64,000 bases of DNA, from the NCBI RefSeq assembly GCF_003334815.1, contig NZ_QOWO01000013.1. One strand, 5' to 3'. Shown piece after piece: positions 3,515-58,023 of the stretch (the first letter of the stretch is position 1; the number at the start of each line of letters is the position of its first letter). The notes under the pieces were generated by a model. That model was given only the letters and a program-made list of their open reading frames with translations. It ran no database searches and was not told the origin of the DNA. Source of the stretch: Escherichia coli (GTDB lineage Bacteria; Pseudomonadota; Gammaproteobacteria; Enterobacterales; Enterobacteriaceae). Both the position numbers and the translations under genes were made by a program.

Positions 3515-5161
3515 TCAGGATTTTTTCTTCTCGCGGCTATGCAGGCCACGTTTTTCCAGACCACGGTAAATCAGCTGCTGCTGAATAATGGTTACCAGGT
3601 TGCTGACGATATAGTACAGCACCAGACCTGACGGGAACCACAGGAAGAACACGGTGAAGATGACCGGCATAAAGGTCATGATCTTCTGCTGCATCGGGTC
3701 GGTCACTGTGGTCGGCGACATCTTCTGAATGAAGAACATCGTTACGCCCATCAGGATCGGCAGGATGTAGTACGGGTCCTGTGCCGACAGGTCGTGGATC
3801 CACAGTGCAAACGGTGCCTGACGCAGTTCAACGGAACCCATCAGCATGTAGTACAACGCCAGGAAGATTGGCATCTGGATCAGCAGCGGGAAGCAGCCGC
3901 CCAGCGGGTTAACCTTCTCAGCTTTGTACAGCGCCATCATTTCCTGGCTGATACGCTGTTTGTCATCGCCCAGACGCTCACGCATTGCCTGAATCTTCGG
4001 CTGCAACATACGCATCTTCGCCATGGAGGTGTACTGCGCTTTGGTCAGCGGGTACATGATGCCACGAACGATAAAGGTGATGATGATAATGGAGAAGCCC
4101 CAGTTACCCACAAAGCTATGGATCCATTTCAGCAGTTTGAACAGCGGCTGAGAGATGAACCACAACCAACCGTAATCAACGGTCAGATCCAGGTGCGGAG
4201 CAACAGCTGCCATTTTGTCCTGGATTTCCGGGCCAACCCACAGGGTGCTGTTCATCGCGCCAGTCTGACCAGGCTGAACCAGTACCGGCTGAGATTTATA
4301 GCCGATAGCGGCGATGCCGTTACCCAGATTAGCGGTATAGAAGTTGTTGGTACCGTCGTTATGCGGGATCCACGCCGTCGCGAAATACTGTTGCAGCATC
4401 GCCACCCAACCACCTTTCGAAGAGATGTTCAGGTTTTCGTTATCGGCAATGGTATCGAACTTGTATTTCTCATACTTCTCGTCAGGCGTGGAGTACGCCG
4501 CGCCACGGAAGGTGTGCAGTGCGAAGTTGCTGCTTCCGGTATCGAGATGCGGTGGCAGAGTGATGGATTGCTTCAACTGACCAAACGAGGAGATTTCCAG
4601 CGGTTTCTCGCCAGCGTTCTGCACGTTGTAGTTGACGTTGACAGCGTAATCACCACGTTTCAGGACAAACGTTTTGGTAAACGTGTTGCCTGCCGCGTCG
4701 GTATACGTCATCGGCACCTGCAGTTCGTTTTGACCTTCAGCCAGCACATAAGCGTCTTTTTCAACGTTATACAGCGGACGCGGGCCGTTAGCCGGGTTAT
4801 CCGGGCCATCACGACCGGTCAGACCGCTCTGTGCCTGATAAATAAACTGCGGTGAAGTTTCCAACAGCTGGAACGGCTGGGTAGAGTTCAGCTCTTTCGG
4901 GTAAGCAGGCAGCAGAGCTTGCTCAACATCACCACCACGGGTGTTGATGGTCAGATCAAGCACGTCGGTCTTAACCGAGATCAGTTTCCCCTGGCCACTG
5001 GCCGGTACGCCCTGGTCGGCGGCGCTACCCGCTGCGGTGGTCGTTGTCTGCGTGGTCTGTTGGGCCTGAGGTTGCGGGTTTTTATCCTGCTCCCAGGCTT
5101 GCCAGATCATGAAAGACACGAACAGCAAAGCGATGACTAAAAGATTGCGTTGCGAATCCAT
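3515..5161 (-). CDS. yidC: Membrane protein insertase YidC
   Basis: 548-aa [35 protein letters not shown]..., in the conserved rpmH-rnpA-yidD-yidC-mnmE context. Confidence 0.95.
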
Positions 5162-44506: not shown

Positions 44507-46273
44507 TTATTCCGTGACTTCCAGCGTAGTGAAGGCAAACTTCTCGCCATCAAATAGCCCCTGACTGGTTAGTTTTAGCGCGGGGATCACTGGCAGAGAA
44601 AGAAACGCCATCTGAATAAACGGCTCATCGGGTAACGGACCGCATTCACGGGCGGCGGCTTTCAAGGCGTCAATTTGTTCCGCCAGCGACTGCGCCGTGT
44701 CGGTGCTCATCAGCCCGGCAATGGGTAACGGCAGATGACTTTGTACCTGGCCGTTACGTACCACGCACAGCCCGCCGCCATCCTGAATCACCTGATTGAC
44801 CGCCAGCGCCATCTCTTCGGCACTGCGACCGATCACCACAATATTATGGCTGTCATGGCTGACCGTCGCAGCCAGCGCACCTTCATTCAGTCCAAAGCCG
44901 CCAAGCAAACCACAAGCCGGAGCCAGCCGTTGCCCGTAACGCTCAAGTACGGCAATAAAGCTCACATCATCGCGATCAAAACCATTTTCGCTGTAGACGC
45001 TGGAGTGGGAGTGCGTAATCAATTCGTTATGGATGACGTCAATGACCCGATAGCGTTTTCCGGGCGTAAATTGCAGGGCAAAGTCGCTGGCGGAAACTGG
45101 CTGGCGGGCAATGGTGTTGCCATATGGCGGAGCGGATTGTGCCAGTCTCGCCGACTCTTCCGCCTGTAAGGTTTGCGCATCAATCGGCTCGCCTTTCACC
45201 AGTACCTGCTGCACCGTGACCTTACGCGCATCGCTCAACAGGACGATATCGGCCTGCTTGCCGGGTGCCAGTAAGCCGAGGTGATTCAGACCAAAGTGGC
45301 GCGCCGTCGACCAGCTGGCGACGCGATATGCCACATGCAGCGGCACATTGTGTTGTTCGATCAGGCGGCGAATTAAGGCATCGATGTGTCCTTCATGGGC
45401 GATCTCCCACGGGTTACGGTCATCGGTACAGAGCATGCATTGCGGGCTGTTAAATTCGTTGATCAACGGTGCCAGCGCGTTGAGATTGCGGGCAGCGGAC
45501 CCTTCGCGGATCATCAACGACATGCCGAGTTGTAATTTCCGGCGTCCTTCTTCCAGCTGATAACTTTCGTGGCAGTTTTCAATACCCGCAGTAATATAGG
45601 CGTTAAGTTCTTTACCACCCAAACCCGGGCAGTGACCGTCCAGCGTCAGGTGGCGAAATGCATCCAGTTTATCGAGCAGCGCATTCTGCCCGCTAATTAC
45701 GCCAGGGTAGTCCATCATTTCTGCAAGGCCGGTAACCTGCGGATGGTCCCGCCAGGCGAGCATCTGTTCAAGGGTAAAACTGGCACCGTTAACATCGCAG
45801 CCTTCCAGGGCGGGTACGCAAGAGCTGACCTGTAAGTACTGGTTTTGCCTTGCCTGTTCGGCACAGCGGGCAAACCAGGCGAATCCGGCTTCGCCCATCA
45901 CGTTGACGATTTCATGAGGGTCGCAAATAACGGTCGTCAGGCCGCGCGGCAGGGTAGCGGTTTCAAAAGTGACCGGCGTCATCATGCTGGATTCAATATG
46001 CAGGTGAGCATCAATAAACCCTGGCACCGCCGTTGCGCCGCGAGCATCAATCCGCTGCAAAGCCGGAGCATCAGTGTATTCTGCGCCAACACCGGCAATG
46101 TAACGTCCTTTAATCACAATTGGGCCGGAAATTTCTCCGCCATTGATCAGGTCGAGAATAGAGACATTATCAATAATATAATCGGCAACAGCGTCGCCAC
46201 GGGAAACGGCTAACAATTCCTGGTATTCAGCCCGGCTAATGTGATGAAATTTATGGTTAATAGAATTATTCAT
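44507..46273 (-). CDS. ade: Adenine deaminase
   Basis: 588-aa [66 protein letters not shown]..., amidohydrolase family with the metal-binding [11 protein letters not shown] motif. Confidence 0.9.
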
Positions 46274-46447
46274 ATTTTTCTCATTTTGATTTTATCAATT
46301 TGATTATTATTTATCATAAAGAAACGTCGCGAGATTATTAAAGAATATCCATTAATGTGCAATTGAAATGTGATAATTATCACTGAACCGTTGTTGTCAT
46401 TTGTTTTACAAAAGCAAGGGATTAAATCTCCTCCAATGGACAAAAAA

Positions 46448-47782
46448 ATGAATAATGACAATACCGATTACGTGAGTAATGAATCAGGGACGCTTTCGCG
46501 ATTATTTAAACTACCTCAGCATGGGACCACCGTCCGCACAGAATTGATTGCGGGGATGACCACTTTTTTAACCATGGTGTACATCGTTTTTGTGAACCCG
46601 CAAATCCTCGGCGCGGCACAAATGGACCCGAAAGTGGTGTTTGTTACCACCTGTTTGATTGCCGGTATCGGCAGTATTGCGATGGGGATATTTGCTAACT
46701 TACCCGTGGCGCTGGCTCCGGCAATGGGGCTGAACGCCTTCTTTGCCTTCGTGGTCGTGGGGGCGATGGGCATCTCCTGGCAGACCGGGATGGGCGCAAT
46801 ATTCTGGGGCGCAGTTGGACTATTTTTGCTCACGCTGTTTCGTATCCGGTACTGGATGATCTCCAACATTCCCTTAAGTTTACGTATTGGTATCACCAGC
46901 GGAATTGGATTATTTATCGCCTTAATGGGATTAAAAAATACTGGCGTTATTGTCGCCAATAAAGACACGCTGGTGATGATTGGCGATTTAAGTTCTCACG
47001 GCGTGTTGTTAGGTATTTTAGGGTTTTTTATTATAACCGTGTTGTCATCACGTCATTTTCATGCCGCGGTGCTGGTTTCTATTGTGGTGACGTCTTGCTG
47101 TGGATTATTTTTCGGTGATGTTCATTTTAGCGGCGTCTATTCCATTCCGCCTGATATTAGCGGCGTCATTGGTGAAGTAGATTTGAGCGGCGCGTTAACA
47201 CTTGAACTCGCCGGTATCATTTTCTCCTTTATGCTGATCAACCTATTTGATTCATCAGGAACATTAATTGGTGTAACTGATAAAGCGGGCTTAATAGATG
47301 GTAACGGTAAATTCCCCAATATGAATAAGGCGCTGTATGTTGATAGCGTCAGTTCGGTGGCGGGTGCGTTTATCGGCACCTCGTCTGTTACTGCCTATAT
47401 TGAAAGTACTTCTGGTGTGGCAGTCGGTGGCCGCACGGGGCTGACTGCGGTTGTGGTTGGCGTTATGTTCCTGTTGGTTATGTTCTTCTCACCGCTGGTG
47501 GCGATAGTTCCTCCTTACGCAACCGCCGGAGCGTTAATCTTTGTTGGCGTGCTGATGACTTCGAGCCTGGCGCGCGTTAACTGGGATGATTTTACCGAAT
47601 CGGTGCCTGCGTTTATTACCACGGTGATGATGCCCTTTACTTTCTCGATCACCGAAGGGATTGCACTCGGCTTTATGTCGTACTGCATCATGAAAGTATG
47701 CACCGGGCGCTGGCGCGATCTGAACCTGTGTGTGGTGGTGGTCGCAGCTCTGTTTGCACTGAAGATTATTCTGGTGGATTAG
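46448..47782 (+). CDS. adeQ: Adenine permease (AzgA/NCS2 family), YicO
   Basis: ORF MNNDNTDYVSNESGTLSRLFKLPQHGTTVRTELIAGMTTFLTMVYIVFVNPQILG...; 444 aa from that start, divergent from ade. Confidence 0.85.
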   Translation: MNNDNTDYVSNESGTLSRLFKLPQHGTTVRTELIAGMTTFLTMVYIVFVNPQILGAAQMDPKVVFVTTCLIAGIGSIAMGIFANLPVALAPAMGLNAFFAFVVVGAMGISWQTGMGAIFWGAVGLFLLTLFRIRYWMISNIPLSLRIGITSGIGLFIALMGLKNTGVIVANKDTLVMIGDLSSHGVLLGILGFFIITVLSSRHFHAAVLVSIVVTSCCGLFFGDVHFSGVYSIPPDISGVIGEVDLSGALTLELAGIIFSFMLINLFDSSGTLIGVTDKAGLIDGNGKFPNMNKALYVDSVSSVAGAFIGTSSVTAYIESTSGVAVGGRTGLTAVVVGVMFLLVMFFSPLVAIVPPYATAGALIFVGVLMTSSLARVNWDDFTESVPAFITTVMMPFTFSITEGIALGFMSYCIMKVCTGRWRDLNLCVVVVAALFALKIILVD

Positions 47783-50243: not shown

Positions 50244-51062
50244 ATGAAACTGACAACACATCATCTACGGACAGGGGCCGCATTATTGCTGGCCGGAATT
50301 CTGCTGGCAGGTTGCGACCAGAGTAGCAGCGATGCAAAACACATTAAAGTTGGCGTTATAAATGGCGCAGAACAAGATGTCGCGGAAGTCGCTAAAAAGG
50401 TGGCAAAAGAGAAATATGGCCTCGATGTTGAACTGGTAGGATTTAGCGGTTCGTTGCTACCGAACGATGCGACAAATCATGGCGAACTTGATGCGAATGT
50501 CTTCCAGCATCGACCCTTTCTTGAACAAGATAATCAGGCGCATGGTTATAAACTGGTAGCGGTGGGAAATACGTTTGTCTTCCCTATGGCGGGTTATTCC
50601 AAAAAAATCAAAACCGTGGCGCAAATAAAAGAAGGCGCGACAGTGGCGATCCCCAACGACCCGACCAACCTTGGTCGCGCACTTTTACTGTTGCAAAAAG
50701 AGAAGCTAATTACTCTGAAAGAGGGAAAAGGGTTATTACCTACCGCGCTGGATATAACCGATAATCCTCGTCATTTGCAGATTATGGAACTCGAGGGGGC
50801 GCAGCTCCCGCGCGTACTGGATGATCCCAAAGTTGATGTAGCGATTATCAGCACCACTTACATTCAGCAGACCGGGCTTTCTCCGGTGCACGACAGCGTA
50901 TTTATTGAAGATAAGAATTCGCCGTATGTGAATATTTTGGTGGCACGGGAAGATAATAAGAATGCAGAAAACGTGAAGGAATTTCTGCAATCTTATCAAT
51001 CACCCGAAGTCGCTAAAGCGGCAGAAACCATTTTTAACGGTGGCGCGGTGCCTGGCTGGTAA
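50244..51062 (+). CDS. nlpA: Lipoprotein 28 (methionine-binding lipoprotein)
   Basis: 272-aa ORF MKLTTHHLRTGAALLLAGILLAGCDQSSSDAKHIKVGV... with a lipobox LAGC. Confidence 0.9.
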   Translation: MKLTTHHLRTGAALLLAGILLAGCDQSSSDAKHIKVGVINGAEQDVAEVAKKVAKEKYGLDVELVGFSGSLLPNDATNHGELDANVFQHRPFLEQDNQAHGYKLVAVGNTFVFPMAGYSKKIKTVAQIKEGATVAIPNDPTNLGRALLLLQKEKLITLKEGKGLLPTALDITDNPRHLQIMELEGAQLPRVLDDPKVDVAIISTTYIQQTGLSPVHDSVFIEDKNSPYVNILVAREDNKNAENVKEFLQSYQSPEVAKAAETIFNGGAVPGW

Positions 51063-51065
51063 TTC

Positions 51066-51989
51066 TCACTTATGCCGCGCCGGACGATTTATTTTTCTGG
51101 CGCGGCGACGGGAATCCATTGAAATCAAAATCACCGATGACAGAATCAGCAGCGTTCCCAGCCAGTCCGGTAATGTGAACGTGATCCCCAGCAACAGCAA
51201 AGAGAGTAGCGCGCTACTTAATGGTTCTGCACAGCTCAAAATGCTGGCTTTTGGACCGCCAATTAATTGTGCTCCTTTCAGGTACAGACTAAATGTCAGG
51301 GACGTACCAATGACCACCAAATAAAAAAACGCCAGAATCAAACTGCCGTTAACGACAAAGTTTGTTCCTTGTCTGGCATAAAAAGGCAACAGAATCAGAC
51401 CGCCAATCAGCATACTCCAGCCGACGACTGGTAACGTGCCATAGCGGGCAATTAGCGTTGAGGGATAGGTGGTATAGAATGCAGCAGCAAATGCCGAGGC
51501 AATGCCCCAGAACAACGCGGCAGGAGAGATCGATAATGACGTCGGATTACCGTGTGTCACCAATAAAAAAGTCCCGACCAGCGATGTCAAAATAGCGCAG
51601 AAAACCAGAATGCCCGGGCGCGATTTACGCACCAGTGAGAACCAGGCGACGATAATCGTCGGTGAGAGGAATTGCAGCACCGTTGCCGTGGCTGCGTTCG
51701 ATTTTTCGATGGTTAGCAAAAAAGTGAGCTGTACAGTTAGCGCGCCAACCACGGAAAAAATCAGCAGGCTAATGGCATCTTTATGATTGTTAATAATAGA
51801 AAAGATTTTATCGCCATGAACAAATGACAGCGTCAGTAGAATCAAACCGGCGAATATCAAACGCGTCATAGTCAAAAACTGCGACGACATCTGGCTTTGC
51901 TCCATGATGTATTGCGCGCAGACCCCTGAACTTCCCCACAACACGGCGGCAATCAGAACGTTCAGCATCCCCTTTCTGGTGGAACCCAT
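51066..51989 (-). CDS. yicL: EamA/DMT-family transporter YicL
   Basis: 307-aa polytopic [34 protein letters not shown]... Confidence 0.85.
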
Positions 51990-52099
51990 TTTTCCCTCTG
52001 CATACTGTTTTGTCGTTTATGTATGCAGGCATGATAGCAAAAATGGCGAGGATGGCTCTGTTTGCGCCACGCCGATTTTTCTTAGCCCAGACTGGTGAG

Positions 52100-53284
52100 C
52101 TAAATATCTTTAATAAACAGCAGGCAAATCATCGCAATACCCAACATCCCTATCGCCAGCCAGAACAACGCATGGTAGCTCCAGATTTCAACCATAATTC
52201 CGTCAACAGAGCCGGCGATAATCCAGCCGACGCGTGAAGTATTTGCATATAACGTTGTCGCAGAGCCTATTTTTTCAGGCATCAAGTCCTGAAAATAAAG
52301 CATGCCGATACCACAGAGAATACCAAGGAAGATGGCATTAAGAATTTGCAATTCCAGCTCAACCGCCGGAGTCGTCGCCATGAGTACGCTGGCGTAAAAA
52401 CACATTCCACTCACGATAGCAATGAGCATTAATAGTCGCTTGCCAATACGTTTCATGTAATAGCCTGCGATTAACATCATCGGAATTTCCAGACCGGCAG
52501 CGATACCAATCATTTCTCCAGCCAGTTTATCGGTTAGATGCAGTTCATCAATAATAAATAGCGGCATATTTATCATGTAGAGATTATTCGCCGCCCACAT
52601 CATTGAACAGACCACAAAAAGTAGCCGCGTATCCCGCTTCCTGTGGGTGGAGGGTAAAATTTCTACGGGTTGGGTAACGACAGGAATATTTCTTTGTATT
52701 GATGGCAAAAACAACCAGACTATCAGTCCGCAAACAACAAATGCGATGGCAGCGGTGAGATACATCACTTTAAAACTAAATCCCATTGCCAGTTCATAAG
52801 CGAGCGGTGGCCCGATAACCCAGGCAAGCGAGATCTGAGCACGTAAAAATGTACTGAACATGACCGTCTCACGGCCTGTTCTGTCGGCGTGTTCACGGGC
52901 GAGGGCGAACATTTGCGGGTTTGCGGTGGAAGCAAAACTACTCAGAAGTACGCCCGTTGAGAGGAGAATGAAGTAGTTGCGATTCCACGCAAAAAGCGTG
53001 CAGGCCAGCACTCCAAATAAGCAACATAGCAGAATCAGTAATTTACGGTCGCCTTGTTTATCGGAGTGCCTTGCCAGAAATTGACTGACCAGAATTCCCA
53101 TAATAGCGCTACCGGTGAAGAAAAAACCTACCATTATAGGACGGGCTTTCAGTTCATCTGCGAGGAATATACTTAGGGTAGGAGTCTGAAGAGCGCCCGC
53201 AATACCCGTCAGAAAGGCGACAAGTAAAAATGCCGCGGCAGTGAGATCAAGTATTTTTGATGGAGTGGTAGCCGTTTTTTGCAT
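52100..53284 (-). CDS. setC: Sugar efflux transporter SetC (MFS)
   Basis: 394-aa ORF MQKTATTPSKILDLTAAAFLLVAFLTGIAGALQTPTLSIFLADELKARP... Confidence 0.85.
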   Translation of the reverse strand: MQKTATTPSKILDLTAAAFLLVAFLTGIAGALQTPTLSIFLADELKARPIMVGFFFTGSAIMGILVSQFLARHSDKQGDRKLLILLCCLFGVLACTLFAWNRNYFILLSTGVLLSSFASTANPQMFALAREHADRTGRETVMFSTFLRAQISLAWVIGPPLAYELAMGFSFKVMYLTAAIAFVVCGLIVWLFLPSIQRNIPVVTQPVEILPSTHRKRDTRLLFVVCSMMWAANNLYMINMPLFIIDELHLTDKLAGEMIGIAAGLEIPMMLIAGYYMKRIGKRLLMLIAIVSGMCFYASVLMATTPAVELELQILNAIFLGILCGIGMLYFQDLMPEKIGSATTLYANTSRVGWIIAGSVDGIMVEIWSYHALFWLAIGMLGIAMICLLFIKDI

Positions 53285-53920
53285 TCTTCTGAATCACCGG
53301 GCGAAAAAATATAACTGAGTTACAAATAAGTACCAGTCGAATGAGTATTGTATTAAGAATTTTTGAGTATCGCTGATACAACCAGAAAGCAATGCTAGCG
53401 CAATATTATAGGGCCAGCAATTGAGATTATTAGTAAAAGCATGTTAAGAATTAATTACCGAATTTATATATTAATTATAGTAAGGCAATGAGCTATTTTT
53501 GATAGTAAAAATAAAACAAGTTGATTTGATATATTAAATGAACAAATTAATCTTGATGGCAGTCTGATTATTGGTGAAGTTTATAGTCAGTTTTTTTCGC
53601 CAGCGGTTAAAGAAATAGAATAGTCGTATAAAAAAGGGTGTTCTGGGGCGAGTAAAACAACATCTTCACCTTAATGGCGATACAGTTGGCTGAGAGTCAG
53701 CAGGGGGGCAAATCACCTGCAAATAAACACGGCGCATACTGGCGTGAATATCGCGGATGCGTTCGAGGACAGAAGAACCGACAGGCGGATTCTTCAGCCG
53801 CTCATCGTCCATCACAAAACCTTAGACCAGGTATTCCTGAAGCCGATTGAATATTGAGCAGTAGAAAATATCTGGATTGACAGTATTACAAGGGGTTGGA
53901 GAACGTCAGGAGAGGCATTT

Positions 53921-54015
53921 TGGCGGAAGATCACAGGAGTCGAACCTGCCCGGGACCGCTGGCGGCCCCAACTGGATTTGAAGTCCAGCCGCCTCACCGG
54001 AGACGACGATCTTCC
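53921..54015 (-). tRNA. selC: tRNA-Sec (selenocysteine tRNA, anticodon UCA)
   Basis: Reverse complement of 53921..54015 is GGAAGATCGTCGTCTCCGGTGAGGCGGCTGGACTTCAAATCCAGTTGGGGCCGCCAGCGGTCCCGGGCAGGTTCGACTCCTGTGATCTTCCGCCA, 95 nt with the long acceptor and extra arm typical of tRNA-Sec and a 3' CCA. Confidence 0.95.
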
Positions 54016-54307
54016 GCGCCTCGATTGCTACATGGAGGCGGGGCGCATTATAGCTACTTCCTTGAGTTTCTACATCCCCCAGATCAGTTTTTTCCGCCTA
54101 ATACACGCAGCGTATTATCACGAAAGCATTATAGTTCATATAAAACCCATATTTTACAATGATATATGAGCGGAATTAACGCTACCACGATCACATAAAA
54201 CAAGAATCATAAATTAATAACCAGATATCGGAATATTCGCTCTCACAGGGATGGTTTACAAAATGCGTTATCGGTCTCAGCACCCCTATAGCATCAAGGA
54301 AAAGCAG

Positions 54308-55695
54308 ATGAAGAGTGAAGTGTTGTCCGTTAAAGAGAAAATTGGTTATGGCATGGGAGACGCCGCCAGCCACATTATTTTCGATAACGTAATGTTATAT
54401 ATGATGTTCTTTTATACCGATATTTTTGGCATTCCTGCCGGTTTTGTCGGAACCATGTTTTTGGTCGCTCGTGCACTGGATGCGATTTCCGATCCTTGCA
54501 TGGGGTTGTTGGCCGATCGAACGCGCTCTCGCTGGGGTAAATTTCGTCCGTGGGTACTGTTTGGCGCACTGCCATTCGGGATCGTCTGTGTACTGGCCTA
54601 TAGCACGCCAGATCTCAGTATGAACGGCAAAATGATCTATGCAGCAATTACTTACACCCTACTTACCTTACCTTACTTTATACCGTCGTCAATATCCCTT
54701 ACTGCGCATTGGGTGGTGTAATCACCAATGACCCGACTCAGCGTATCTCGCTGCAATCCTGGCGTTTTGTGCTGGCGACCGCGGGAGGCATGCTTTCTAC
54801 TGTTCTGATGATGCCACTGGTTAATTTAATTGGCGGTGATAATAAACCACTCGGTTTCCAGGGCGGTATCGCGGTCCTTTCCGTGGTGGCATTCATGATG
54901 CTGGCATTTTGTTTCTTCACCACTAAAGAACGCGTTGAAGCACCACCTACAACAACGTCTATGCGGGAAGATTTACGTGATATCTGGCAAAACGACCAGT
55001 GGCGGATTGTCGGTTTACTAACCATTTTCAATATCCTGGCGGTGTGCGTACGCGGTGGGGCGATGATGTATTACGTCACATGGATTTTGGGCACGCCGGA
55101 AGTGTTTGTCGCTTTTCTCACCACTTATTGCGTGGGTAACCTGATTGGTTCCGCACTGGCAAAACCTCTGACCGACTGGAAATGTAAAGTCACTATCTTC
55201 TGGTGGACGAACGCCCTGCTGGCAGTGATTAGCCTCGCGATGTTCTTTGTTCCCATGCAGGCCAGCATCACTATGTTTGTCTTCATCTTCGTGATTGGTG
55301 TGTTGCATCAACTGGTGACACCTATCCAGTGGGTAATGATGTCCGATACCGTCGACTACGGCGAGTGGTGCAATGGTAAACGCCTGACCGGGATCAGTTT
55401 TGCTGGCACGCTGTTTGTGCTCAAACTGGGGTTGGCCTTCGGCGGCGCTCTTATCGGCTGGATGCTGGCTTATGGCGGATATGATGCGGCAGAAAAAGCG
55501 CAGAACAGCGCCACGATTAGCATCATTATTGCGCTATTCACGATTGTTCCGGCGATCTGTTATTTGCTGAGCGCGATTATCGCTAAACGCTACTACTCAC
55601 TCACGACGCACAATCTGAAAACCGTTATGGAACAGCTGGCTCAGGGTAAACGCCGTTGCCAGCAACAATTCACCTCTCAAGAAGTGCAGAACTAA
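54308..55695 (+). pseudogene. yicJ: GPH-family sugar:cation symporter gene yicJ, frameshifted by an extra CTTAC unit
   Basis: The homolog is split between ORF 54251..54721 (frame 2) and ORF 54709..55695 (frame 1). Start-to-stop length from MKSEVLSVKEK is 1388 nt, which is 5 nt more than a 460-aa coding length; the frame switch falls on three tandem CTTAC units at 54662..54676. Confidence 0.75.
54662..54676 (+). repeat. Pentanucleotide tandem repeat (CTTAC)x3 inside yicJ
   Basis: cttac cttac cttac read directly from the sequence; deleting one unit restores a continuous reading ...AAITYTLLTLLYTVVNIPYCALGGVITNDPTQ... Confidence 0.85.
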
Positions 55696-55704
55696 GGAAC
55701 GGCA

Positions 55705-58023
55705 ATGAAAATTAGCGATGGAAACTGGTTGATTCAACCTGGCCTCAATTTGATTCACCCGCTTCAGGTGTTCGAGGTTGAACAGCAGGATAATGAAATG
55801 GTGGTCTATGCTGCCCCCCGTGATGTGCGTGAACGTACCTGGCAGCTTGATACGCCTTTATTTACGTTGCGCTTTTTCTCCCCACAGGAAGGTATTGTCG
55901 GTGTGCGGATTGAGCATTTTCAGGGGGCGCTGAATAACGGTCCTCATTATCCGCTCAATATTTTGCAGGACGTGAAGGTCACAATCGAAAACACAGAACG
56001 TTATGCTGAGTTTAAAAGTGGCAACTTAAGCGCGCGTGTCAGCAAAGGTGAGTTCTGGTCACTGGATTTTCTGCGCAACGGCGAACGTATTACCGGTAGT
56101 CAGGTGAAAAATAATGGCTACGTGCAGGACACGAATAATCAACGCAATTATATGTTTGAGCGGCTTGATCTTGGCGTTGGCGAAACAGTTTACGGTCTGG
56201 GAGAGCGCTTTACTGCCCTGGTGCGCAATGGCCAGACGGTAGAGACCTGGAACCGGGACGGCGGCACAAGTACTGAACAGGCGTATAAAAATATCCCGTT
56301 CTACATGACTAACCGTGGTTATGGGGTACTGGTCAATCATCCCCAGTGTGTCTCTTTTGAAGTGGGATCGGAGAAAGTCTCCAAAGTGCAGTTCAGCGTT
56401 GAGAGTGAATATCTCGAATACTTTGTTATCGACGGCCCGACGCCGAAAGCGGTACTTGATCGTTATACCCGCTTTACTGGTCGTCCGGCGCTGCCGCCCG
56501 CGTGGTCCTTCGGCCTGTGGCTAACCACTTCATTTACCACCAACTACGACGAAGCGACGGTAAACAGCTTTATCGATGGTATGGCGGAACGCAATCTGCC
56601 GCTGCATGTTTTCCACTTTGACTGTTTCTGGATGAAAGCCTTCCAGTGGTGCGATTTTGAGTGGGACCCGCTGACTTTCCCTGACCCGGAAGGGATGATC
56701 CGCCGCCTGAAAGCGAAAGGACTGAAAATCTGCGTCTGGATTAACCCCTATATCGGTCAAAAATCCCCCGTCTTTAAAGAGTTACAAGAGAAAGGCTATT
56801 TACTCAAACGCCCGGACGGTTCGCTATGGCAGTGGGATAAATGGCAGCCAGGTCTGGCGATTTATGACTTTACCAATCCGGATGCCTGCAAATGGTACGC
56901 CGACAAACTGAAAGGTCTGGTCGCGATGGGCGTTGATTGCTTTAAGACCGACTTTGGCGAACGTATCCCAACTGATGTTCAGTGGTTTGACGGTTCCGAT
57001 CCGCAGAAAATGCATAACCATTATGCGTACATCTACAACGAACTGGTGTGGAACGTGCTCAAGGACACCGTTGGTGAGGAAGAAGCTGTCTTGTTTGCCC
57101 GCTCGGCCTCCGTCGGTGCGCAGAAATTCCCGGTACACTGGGGTGGCGATTGTTACGCTAACTACGAATCAATGGCGGAAAGCCTGCGCGGTGGTTTGTC
57201 TATTGGCCTTTCAGGTTTTGGCTTCTGGAGCCACGATATCGGCGGCTTTGAAAATACCGCTCCGGCGCACGTTTACAAACGCTGGTGCGCGTTTGGTTTG
57301 CTCTCCAGCCATAGCCGTTTACACGGTAGCAAATCTTATCGTGTGCCGTGGGCCTACGATGATGAGTCCTGTGATGTGGTGCGCTTCTTCACGCAACTGA
57401 AATGCCGCATGATGCCGTATCTGTATCGTGAAGCTGCGCGTGCGAACGCGCGGGGTACGCCGATGATGCGGGCCATGATGATGGAGTTCCCGGACGATCC
57501 GGCTTGTGATTACCTTGACCGTCAATACATGTTAGGCGACAACGTGATGGTTGCGCCGGTGTTCACTGAAGCGGGCGATGTGCAGTTCTACCTGCCGGAA
57601 GGTCGCTGGACACACCTGTGGCACAACGATGAACTCGACGGTAGTCGCTGGCATAAACAGCAGCACGGCTTCCTGAGTCTGCCCGTTTATGTGCGTGATA
57701 ACACTCTACTGGCGCTGGGCAACAACGATCAACGTCCCGATTACGTGTGGCACGAAGGCACGGCATTCCACCTCTTTAATCTGCAAGACGGGCATGAAGC
57801 CGTCTGTGAAGTGCCCGCTGCTGACGGATCGGTGATCTTTACTTTAAAAGCAGCACGTACTGGCAACACGATTACTGTGACTGGTGCGGGCGAGGCGAAG
57901 AACTGGACACTGTGCCTGCGCAATGTTGTGAAAGTAAATGGTCTGCAAGACGGTTCGCAGGCTGAAAGTGAGCAGGGGCTGGTGGTGAAGCCTCAAGGGA
58001 ATGCGCTGACAATTACGTTGTAA
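55705..58023 (+). CDS. yicI: Alpha-xylosidase (glycoside hydrolase family 31)
   Basis: 772-aa [41 protein letters not shown]... with GH31 catalytic region (WINPY, KTDFGE). Confidence 0.9.

Follow-up and report, generated by a model that had tools for sequence, protein, structure and literature searches.

The 636-bp gap between selC and setC in this Escherichia coli sequence is very probably a composite, made up of a decayed rhuM fragment and the AT-rich, H-NS-bound region upstream of setC. On the selC side, the gap holds a neutrally decaying internal piece of rhuM, left behind by a small variable islet in the selC-yicL interval. On the setC side, the gene has its own AT-rich upstream region of about 330 bp, coated by H-NS. 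We find no support for a small RNA or a micro-ORF in the gap.

Genomic setting and layout of the gap

The selC-setC gap occupies positions 53285-53920 of the window, by which we mean the whole 64,000-nucleotide stretch of DNA that was analyzed. The sequence around the gap is that of a K-12-like E. coli in reversed orientation relative to MG1655, with 99.88% identity to NC_000913.3 over 51000-56000. Within the gap, which corresponds to MG1655 positions 3836317-3836952, identity is 100% both to MG1655 and to O104:H4 strain 2011C-3493. The H-NS binding and Rho dependence data cited below were published for K-12 and not for the strain of the window. The ORF list, ARAGORN, and Rfam bear out the gap coordinates and flanking genes given in an earlier preliminary description of this DNA. 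Because selC and setC are codirectional, the gap lies at once downstream of selC and upstream of setC. The features discussed in the following sections are:

51066-51989, minus strand: yicL, neighboring gene
52100-53284, minus strand: setC, MFS sugar-efflux transporter of 394 amino acids (ORF, and annotation in MG1655 and other genomes)
53285-53362, minus strand: putative setC 5' leader; GGTGAT at 53298-53293, 8 nt before the ATG, weakly resembles a Shine-Dalgarno sequence
53298-53628, unstranded: AT-rich block, promoter island 3834632_331 selC(+)/setC(+), coordinates converted from U00096.2
53363-53438, minus strand: conserved block of 76 nt from the E. albertii alignment, putative setC core promoter
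53586-53680, unstranded: transition stretch with no assignable function, where SNPs are denser than elsewhere in the gap
53681-53842, minus strand: internal rhuM fragment, pseudogene yicT (b4653), from tblastn, Pfam, PGAP, and the MG1655 annotation
53843-53920, minus strand: selC 3' trailer and junction DNA, with C-rich, G-poor sense RNA; it varies more between genomes than the rest of the gap
53921-54015, minus strand: selC, tRNA-Sec(UCA), from ARAGORN and Rfam (RF01852, 83.8 bits)
from about 54309, plus strand: yicJ, the neighbor beyond selC

The AT-rich region serves setC, whose deletion and overexpression have both been reported to give intracellular arabinose phenotypes (PMC3429515). The setC copy in the window carries a single C/T difference from MG1655 at 52522. 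In yicJ, a 5-bp tandem duplication of CTTAC at 54662-54666 gives 3 copies where MG1655 has 2, and the resulting frameshift divides the gene into 2 ORFs (54251-54721 and 54709-55695). A 101-bp stretch of yicJ found a match of at least 99% identity in 1 of 5,426 complete E. coli genomes and matches of 95% or less in the others, consistent with absence of the duplication there. Either the mutation is private to this strain or the sequence contains an error at this point.

The preliminary description had presented the entire 636-bp spacer as AT-rich, which is right for the setC-proximal half and overstates the extent of the bias toward selC. Between 53330 and 53640, where AT-richness had been specifically reported, G+C is indeed 0.296 (29.6%) as against 0.519 for the whole window, the lowest value among all 311-nt stretches in the 64 kb. 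Stretches this poor in G+C make up 0.1% of the 311-nt windows, and every one of them overlaps this same block. The local minimum of 0.18 falls at 53450-53549, and the AT run quoted in the preliminary description lies at 53471-53520. AT-richness ends near 53640, and the remaining 280 bp up to selC (53641-53920) have an ordinary G+C of 0.482, so the gap consists of 2 different halves. The second-lowest G+C spot in the window is at about 46100-46550, where promoter-like pairs are also dense, and covers the start of a 588-amino-acid ORF (44507-46273, minus strand) together with the divergent gap to a 470-amino-acid ORF (46370-47782, plus strand). From K-12 gene order we take this locus to be probably adeD/adeQ, presumably another locus silenced by H-NS.

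Sequence variation also differs along the gap. In a sample of 11 diverse setC-type E. coli genomes, the number of variable sites per nucleotide was as follows:

53285-53329: 0.022 (1 site in 45 nt)
AT core, 53330-53585: 0.055
53586-53680: 0.137, with indels
rhuM fragment: 0.068, with frameshifts
53843-53920: 0.128, with a 15-bp indel
setC third codon positions: 0.081

The 2 most polymorphic stretches are the transition stretch, with 13 variable sites in 95 nt in addition to indels, and the selC-adjacent 53843-53920, with 10 variable sites and 20 indel columns, the 15-bp indel included. At the other end, 53285-53430 has just 4 variable sites in 146 nt among the same genomes. The value for the AT core is not clearly below that for setC third codon positions in these 11 genomes, so that most of the block gives no sign of sequence constraint. 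In this comparison of aligned sequences, signs of constraint are limited to about 150 nt at the setC end.

A fragment of rhuM in the selC-proximal half

The half of the gap next to selC contains a recognizable piece of a known gene family that had been missed in the earlier reading of the gap. A tblastn search with the intact RhuM of strain APEC O2-211 aligns residues 121-185 of its 345 to 53842-53681 on the minus strand, with 63% identity and an E-value of 4e-20. The tblastn and DNA alignments both place an in-frame stop and 2 in-frame deletions within the fragment. When translated and searched with hmmscan, the fragment matches Pfam family PF13310 (Virulence_RhuM) at model positions 52-98 of 252, with an i-E of 4.1e-10. 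The same assignment is made by PGAP, which annotates matching genomes with a partial "rhuM, RhuM family protein, pseudo", and in MG1655 the pseudogene yicT at 3836425-3836556 corresponds to window positions 53812-53681. A search of NCBIfam assigned neither the fragment, nor intact RhuM, nor the 165-amino-acid protein encoded beside intact rhuM to a family.

No intact full-length RhuM frame of about 345 amino acids is present at 53681-53842. With residues 121-185 only, a stop, and 2 deletions, this is a pseudogene fragment and not a functional member of the RhuM family. The statement that the gap has no convincing ORF was correct, but the 49-codon frame at 53815-53666 on the minus strand is what survives of this gene. 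The 61-codon ORF at 53812-53997 (minus strand) also exists as described and overlaps selC. Among the 11 setC-type genomes, the rhuM frame is broken differently by lineage, with stops in some and frameshifts in others, and this is the pattern of neutral decay. By tblastn, no other pieces of RhuM and no remnants of the 165-amino-acid neighbor protein are detectable in the gap. We also considered the AT-rich block as decayed rhuM and rejected this, because tblastn with RhuM and the 165-amino-acid protein found no remnants there.

Alternative cassettes between selC and yicL

A different arrangement of the same interval is found in APEC O2-211, where an intact 345-amino-acid rhuM starts 52 bp after selC and setC is absent. 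In this strain, homology to the window stops at 52018, immediately before yicL, and picks up again at 53906, at a distance of 15 nt from selC; between the break points lie rhuM and a hypothetical gene. Within the gap, the intact-rhuM haplotype and the window share just 15 to 20 nt or so beside selC. Megablast of the gap against the 5,426 complete E. coli genomes recovered the setC-type gap in about 3,620-3,630 of them (67%), the intact-rhuM cassette (rhuM and the 165-amino-acid hypothetical protein, with no setC) occurs in 844 (16%), and neither form is present in about 17%. With this distribution, setC may be an accessory rather than a core gene. Judged from these alignments, the whole selC-yicL interval (52019-53905) acts in E. 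coli like a cassette that can be exchanged.

Larger islands that adjoin the spacer sit on its selC side in O104:H4, CUVET19-1396, and RIVM_C037794. In the island-bearing strains the junction alignment runs on into sequence that matches the 3' end of selC; in O104:H4, homology to the window continues to 53944, inside the selC 3' end. The same arrangement has been described for EAEC 042, where 21 bp of the selC 3' end are repeated.

Insertion sequences have also entered this gap. Homologues in NZ_CM129855.1 and NZ_CP159689.1 have an IS1 that is inserted in the selC-setC gap or deletes part of it, and in strain Z142-6 all that remains of the gap is the 55 bp directly upstream of setC. These insertions and deletions indicate that most of the gap is dispensable in those strains.

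Promoter island and H-NS binding in the AT-rich block

The AT-rich block, with G+C between 0.18 and 0.38, coincides with a published promoter island. We converted the island coordinates from U00096.2 to MG1655 with an offset that we take to be +1977, which agrees with the selC and setC coordinates and puts the island at 53628-53298. Panyukov & Ozoline (PLoS One 2013) include 3834632_331 selC(+)/setC(+) among their 78 promoter islands, and give it the H-NS code "A", meaning that it was bound in the ChIP-chip data of Grainger, Kahramanoglou, and Oshima (PMC3661553). The suggestion that this region is bound by H-NS is thus borne out for the AT-rich half by all of the ChIP-chip studies compared there. 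H-NS would then be the factor that keeps setC low. The high-affinity H-NS motif TCGATAAATT was matched here only with 2 mismatches and is uninformative.

Promoter islands bind RNA polymerase and form open complexes, but yield 9-14-nt oligonucleotides and scant full-length RNA (Panyukov / Ozoline). The stretch 53628-53298 is a listed region of at least 300 bp with an extreme density of predicted start points. In our own liberal scan for -35/-10 elements, the gap contains 13 promoter-like pairs on both strands, compared with a median of 2 per 636-nt tile, and ranks first among 200 tiles. The 331-nt AT block alone has 11 pairs, close to the 8.7 +/- 3.0 found in shuffles of the same composition, so the promoter density that defines the "island" is a consequence of AT-richness. 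The block is single-copy and free of annotated features in 3630 of the 5,426 complete E. coli genomes.

Holoenzyme SELEX in vitro provides additional evidence of polymerase binding. Shimada et al. (2017) assign RpoS and RpoH peaks to setC: the RpoS peak at 3834856 (intensity 22.6) converts to about 53404, and the RpoH peak at 3834954 to about 53306. The corresponding RpoD paper never mentions setC and has selC only in its yicJ/selC row.

An imperfect 30-nt inverted repeat (53287-53316 and 53585-53614, 70% complementary, core GGCGAAAAAA / TTTTTTTCGCC) lies on either side of the AT-rich core. It looks like a chance occurrence. We rejected a MITE or other inverted-repeat element at these positions on account of the 70% complementarity, the common polymorphism that interrupts the repeat, and the lack of any genome with empty flanks.

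A candidate promoter for setC

For comparison outside E. coli, a SetC-specific degenerate pattern was run over 100,044 species-representative genomes and returned one locus, a 1-kb sequence from E. albertii whose SetC is 92% identical over 209 amino acids. The DNA upstream of this setC is also AT-rich, with 24-25% G+C, and can be aligned with E. coli only near the ATG, where the DNA beside the start codon is conserved, and at 53438-53363. The local alignment score of this second block is 38, against 22.6 +/- 3.0 and a maximum of 33 for 300 shuffles. Retention of AT-richness upstream of E. albertii setC despite sequence turnover suggests that composition, and hence silencing, has been maintained. 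We conclude that the AT-rich region arrived together with setC, is kept in composition rather than in sequence, and does not derive from rhuM.

The conserved block contains a pair of hexamers on the setC strand, TTGCTG (53420-53415) and TAGCAT (53397-53392), which are identical in E. coli and E. albertii and separated by 17 bp, within the 16-18-bp spacing of promoter elements. No site among the 11 E. coli genomes is variable between 53390 and 53433, and the RpoS SELEX peak at about 53404 falls on the same block. The match to consensus is weak, with 3 of 6 and 4 of 6 positions, and the pair fails a strict sigma-70 scan, which found no site on the setC strand of the gap. A perfect TATAAT found by our own scan at 53410-53405 in E. 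coli is not conserved in E. albertii. Among the entries listed in the transcription start site supplement of Kim (2012), there is none for setC or selC. The setC promoter most likely lies within the conserved block, at 53420-53392. We assign the core promoter specifically to TTGCTG-17 bp-TAGCAT with even confidence; transcription would then begin near 53385 and the leader would measure about 100 nt. The folding of the leader is unremarkable (z = -0.45). The idea in the preliminary description that the spacer includes the setC promoter and leader fits with the promoter-like block shared with E. albertii, which lies 79-154 nt ahead of the setC start codon, and with the in vitro holoenzyme peaks assigned to setC (Shimada et al. 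2017).

The same 76 nt also contain the motifs CAATTG and ATTGC-GCTAGC-ATTGC. A regulator binding site in 53363-53438 is possible on this basis. A more specific proposal, that the block is the operator of a dedicated regulator or counter-silencer that lifts H-NS and Rho silencing of setC under a specific sugar stress, or that the island gives rise to a condition-specific transcript only upon relief of H-NS or Rho, appears improbable to us.

A proposed role for Rho

Expression of setC is also sensitive to Rho. In the rho N340S mutant, setC RNA rose 31.85-fold by RT-qPCR, an effect described as "very strong", and Rho bound setC terminator RNA with a Kd of 11.5 nM (Chhakchhuak et al., JBC 2022, PMC9160355). 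The effect of the rho mutation on setC could be indirect. The gap has no intrinsic terminator after selC in our terminator scan. Sense RNA from just after selC (53925-53848) is 32% C and 10% G, and from about 53650 to 53400 G is between 5% and 12% and is exceeded by C; this untranslated RNA has the C-rich, G-poor composition (a C>G bubble) of a Rho-dependent termination zone. We infer that Rho acts within the gap on read-through from selC and on transcripts from spurious starts.

A mechanism that would combine these elements begins with H-NS coating the AT-rich region, where RNA polymerase may bind many promoter-like sites with little productive transcription. Any untranslated transcript entering from selC or initiated at spurious starts would be G-poor with an excess of C over G, and would be cut off by Rho. 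We propose that H-NS coating, unproductive polymerase binding, and termination by Rho together keep setC at a low level.

Small RNAs, micro-ORFs, and debris as alternatives

The preliminary description had pointed out that a small RNA or a micro-ORF could fit within the length of the spacer, and the results from Rfam, Term-seq, sense-strand folding, and ORF conservation all go against this. The length of the gap is indeed sufficient for an unannotated small RNA on either strand, whether trans-acting or antisense to the setC leader or selC trailer, and promoter-like pairs are dense on both strands, with TTAAGA-17-TATATT on the plus strand at 53444-53472 as an example. However, the promoter islands in which such pairs are found yield only abortive products of 9-14 nt (Panyukov / Ozoline). 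The plus strand folds somewhat better than shuffles (z = -2.88, from 20 shuffles only), but this folding stems from the imperfect inverted repeat, which the common A/C polymorphism at 53305 interrupts, and the sense strand of the whole gap folds at z = -1.16. An Rfam scan had been proposed as a check; with Rfam 15 it gave only tRNA-Sec and matches at chance level, with no family in the gap up to an E-value of 10 and a single spurious, weak match to a vertebrate lncRNA. The entries listed in the Term-seq supplement of Adams et al. (2021) include the end of mature selC, at 3836316, and no 3' end inside the gap. No canonical terminator was found, the nearest approach being a hairpin at 53680-53666 on the minus strand with 5 pairs and a poor T-run, of which 0.8 are expected by chance. 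Most of the gap is also unalignable with E. albertii. A small RNA here is, on this evidence, very unlikely, and we consider a translated micro-ORF, in the form of a setC leader peptide, a small membrane protein, or a type I toxin, slightly less likely still. Just 2 frames combine an ATG or GTG start with a Shine-Dalgarno-like motif: the 49-codon frame at 53815-53666 and a rather hydrophobic 18-codon frame at 53663-53607, MLFYSPQNTLFYTTILFL, both on the minus strand. The former is the surviving RhuM frame and is frameshifted or truncated in different ways in 6 of the 11 genomes, while the latter lies in the most polymorphic stretch of the gap, is frameshifted in 2 of the 11, and lacks its start in 1. 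A 32-codon ORF with a TTG start at 53392-53294 ends just before setC, but has no ribosome-binding site and starts upstream of the predicted transcription start. In the RefSeq annotation of MG1655, to which small proteins have recently been added (the nearby YicU is one), this interval has only yicT.

A third alternative, that the gap beyond a minimal promoter is functionless debris of insertions and deletions at selC, with an AT block that is foreign and bound by H-NS through its composition, seems unlikely, although less so than either new gene. Much of the variation data is compatible with it: the AT core has SNPs at a near-neutral density, 53586-53680 and 53843-53920 exceed the third-codon level, the gap tolerates both indels and IS1 insertions, and there is almost no alignment with E. 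albertii. Composition accounts for the density of promoter-like sites, and the AT block is absent from 33% of complete genomes. What speaks against debris is the retention of AT-richness upstream of E. albertii setC while the sequence turned over, and the scarcity of variable sites in 53285-53430. The debris reading and the composite that we prefer, a rhuM scar joined to a silenced setC upstream region, differ mainly in emphasis.

Significance and comparison with known systems

Everything substantial about this gap is already known, from annotation or from the literature, and its importance beyond good annotation is small. A long, seemingly empty spacer beside a tRNA gene is here best read as an island scar combined with a silencing architecture, not as a place for new genes. 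The analysis has 2 by-products, a concrete candidate for the setC promoter and the description of alternative selC-yicL cassettes, one with setC and the rhuM scar in about 67% of genomes and one with intact rhuM and no setC in about 16%.

The closest counterpart of the setC-proximal half is the published promoter island 3834632_331, which is the same DNA: AT-rich, full of overlapping promoter-like sites, bound by polymerase and H-NS, and next to a gene flagged as foreign. There is no material difference between the two, the density of sites being taken here from our own scan and in the publication from the authors' algorithm, PlatProm.

H-NS and Rho are known to act together in silencing horizontally acquired or cryptic genes, such as bgl, prophage genes, and SPI-1. 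The region upstream of setC resembles these systems in its AT-rich, H-NS-bound DNA, its G-poor RNA with more C than G, and the strong rise in setC RNA in the rho mutant. A point of difference is that silencing of setC is incomplete, since loss of the gene has phenotypic consequences.

In the selC-proximal half, 53681-53842 matches the middle of RhuM (PF13310) and adjoins selC just as intact rhuM does. Intact rhuM also adjoins selC in Salmonella SPI-3. In contrast to intact RhuM, about 54 of 345 codons are left here, with a stop codon and deletions, making this a scar and not a gene.

selC itself is a hotspot for islands, among them LEE, PAI-I, SPI-3, and SHI-2. The layout of the gap is that of a tRNA-gene islet, as it begins at the selC 3' end, the attB site, and islands elsewhere duplicate the 3' end of the tRNA gene. 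In comparison with strains that carry islands at selC, the site is unoccupied in the window, and only an old scar remains.
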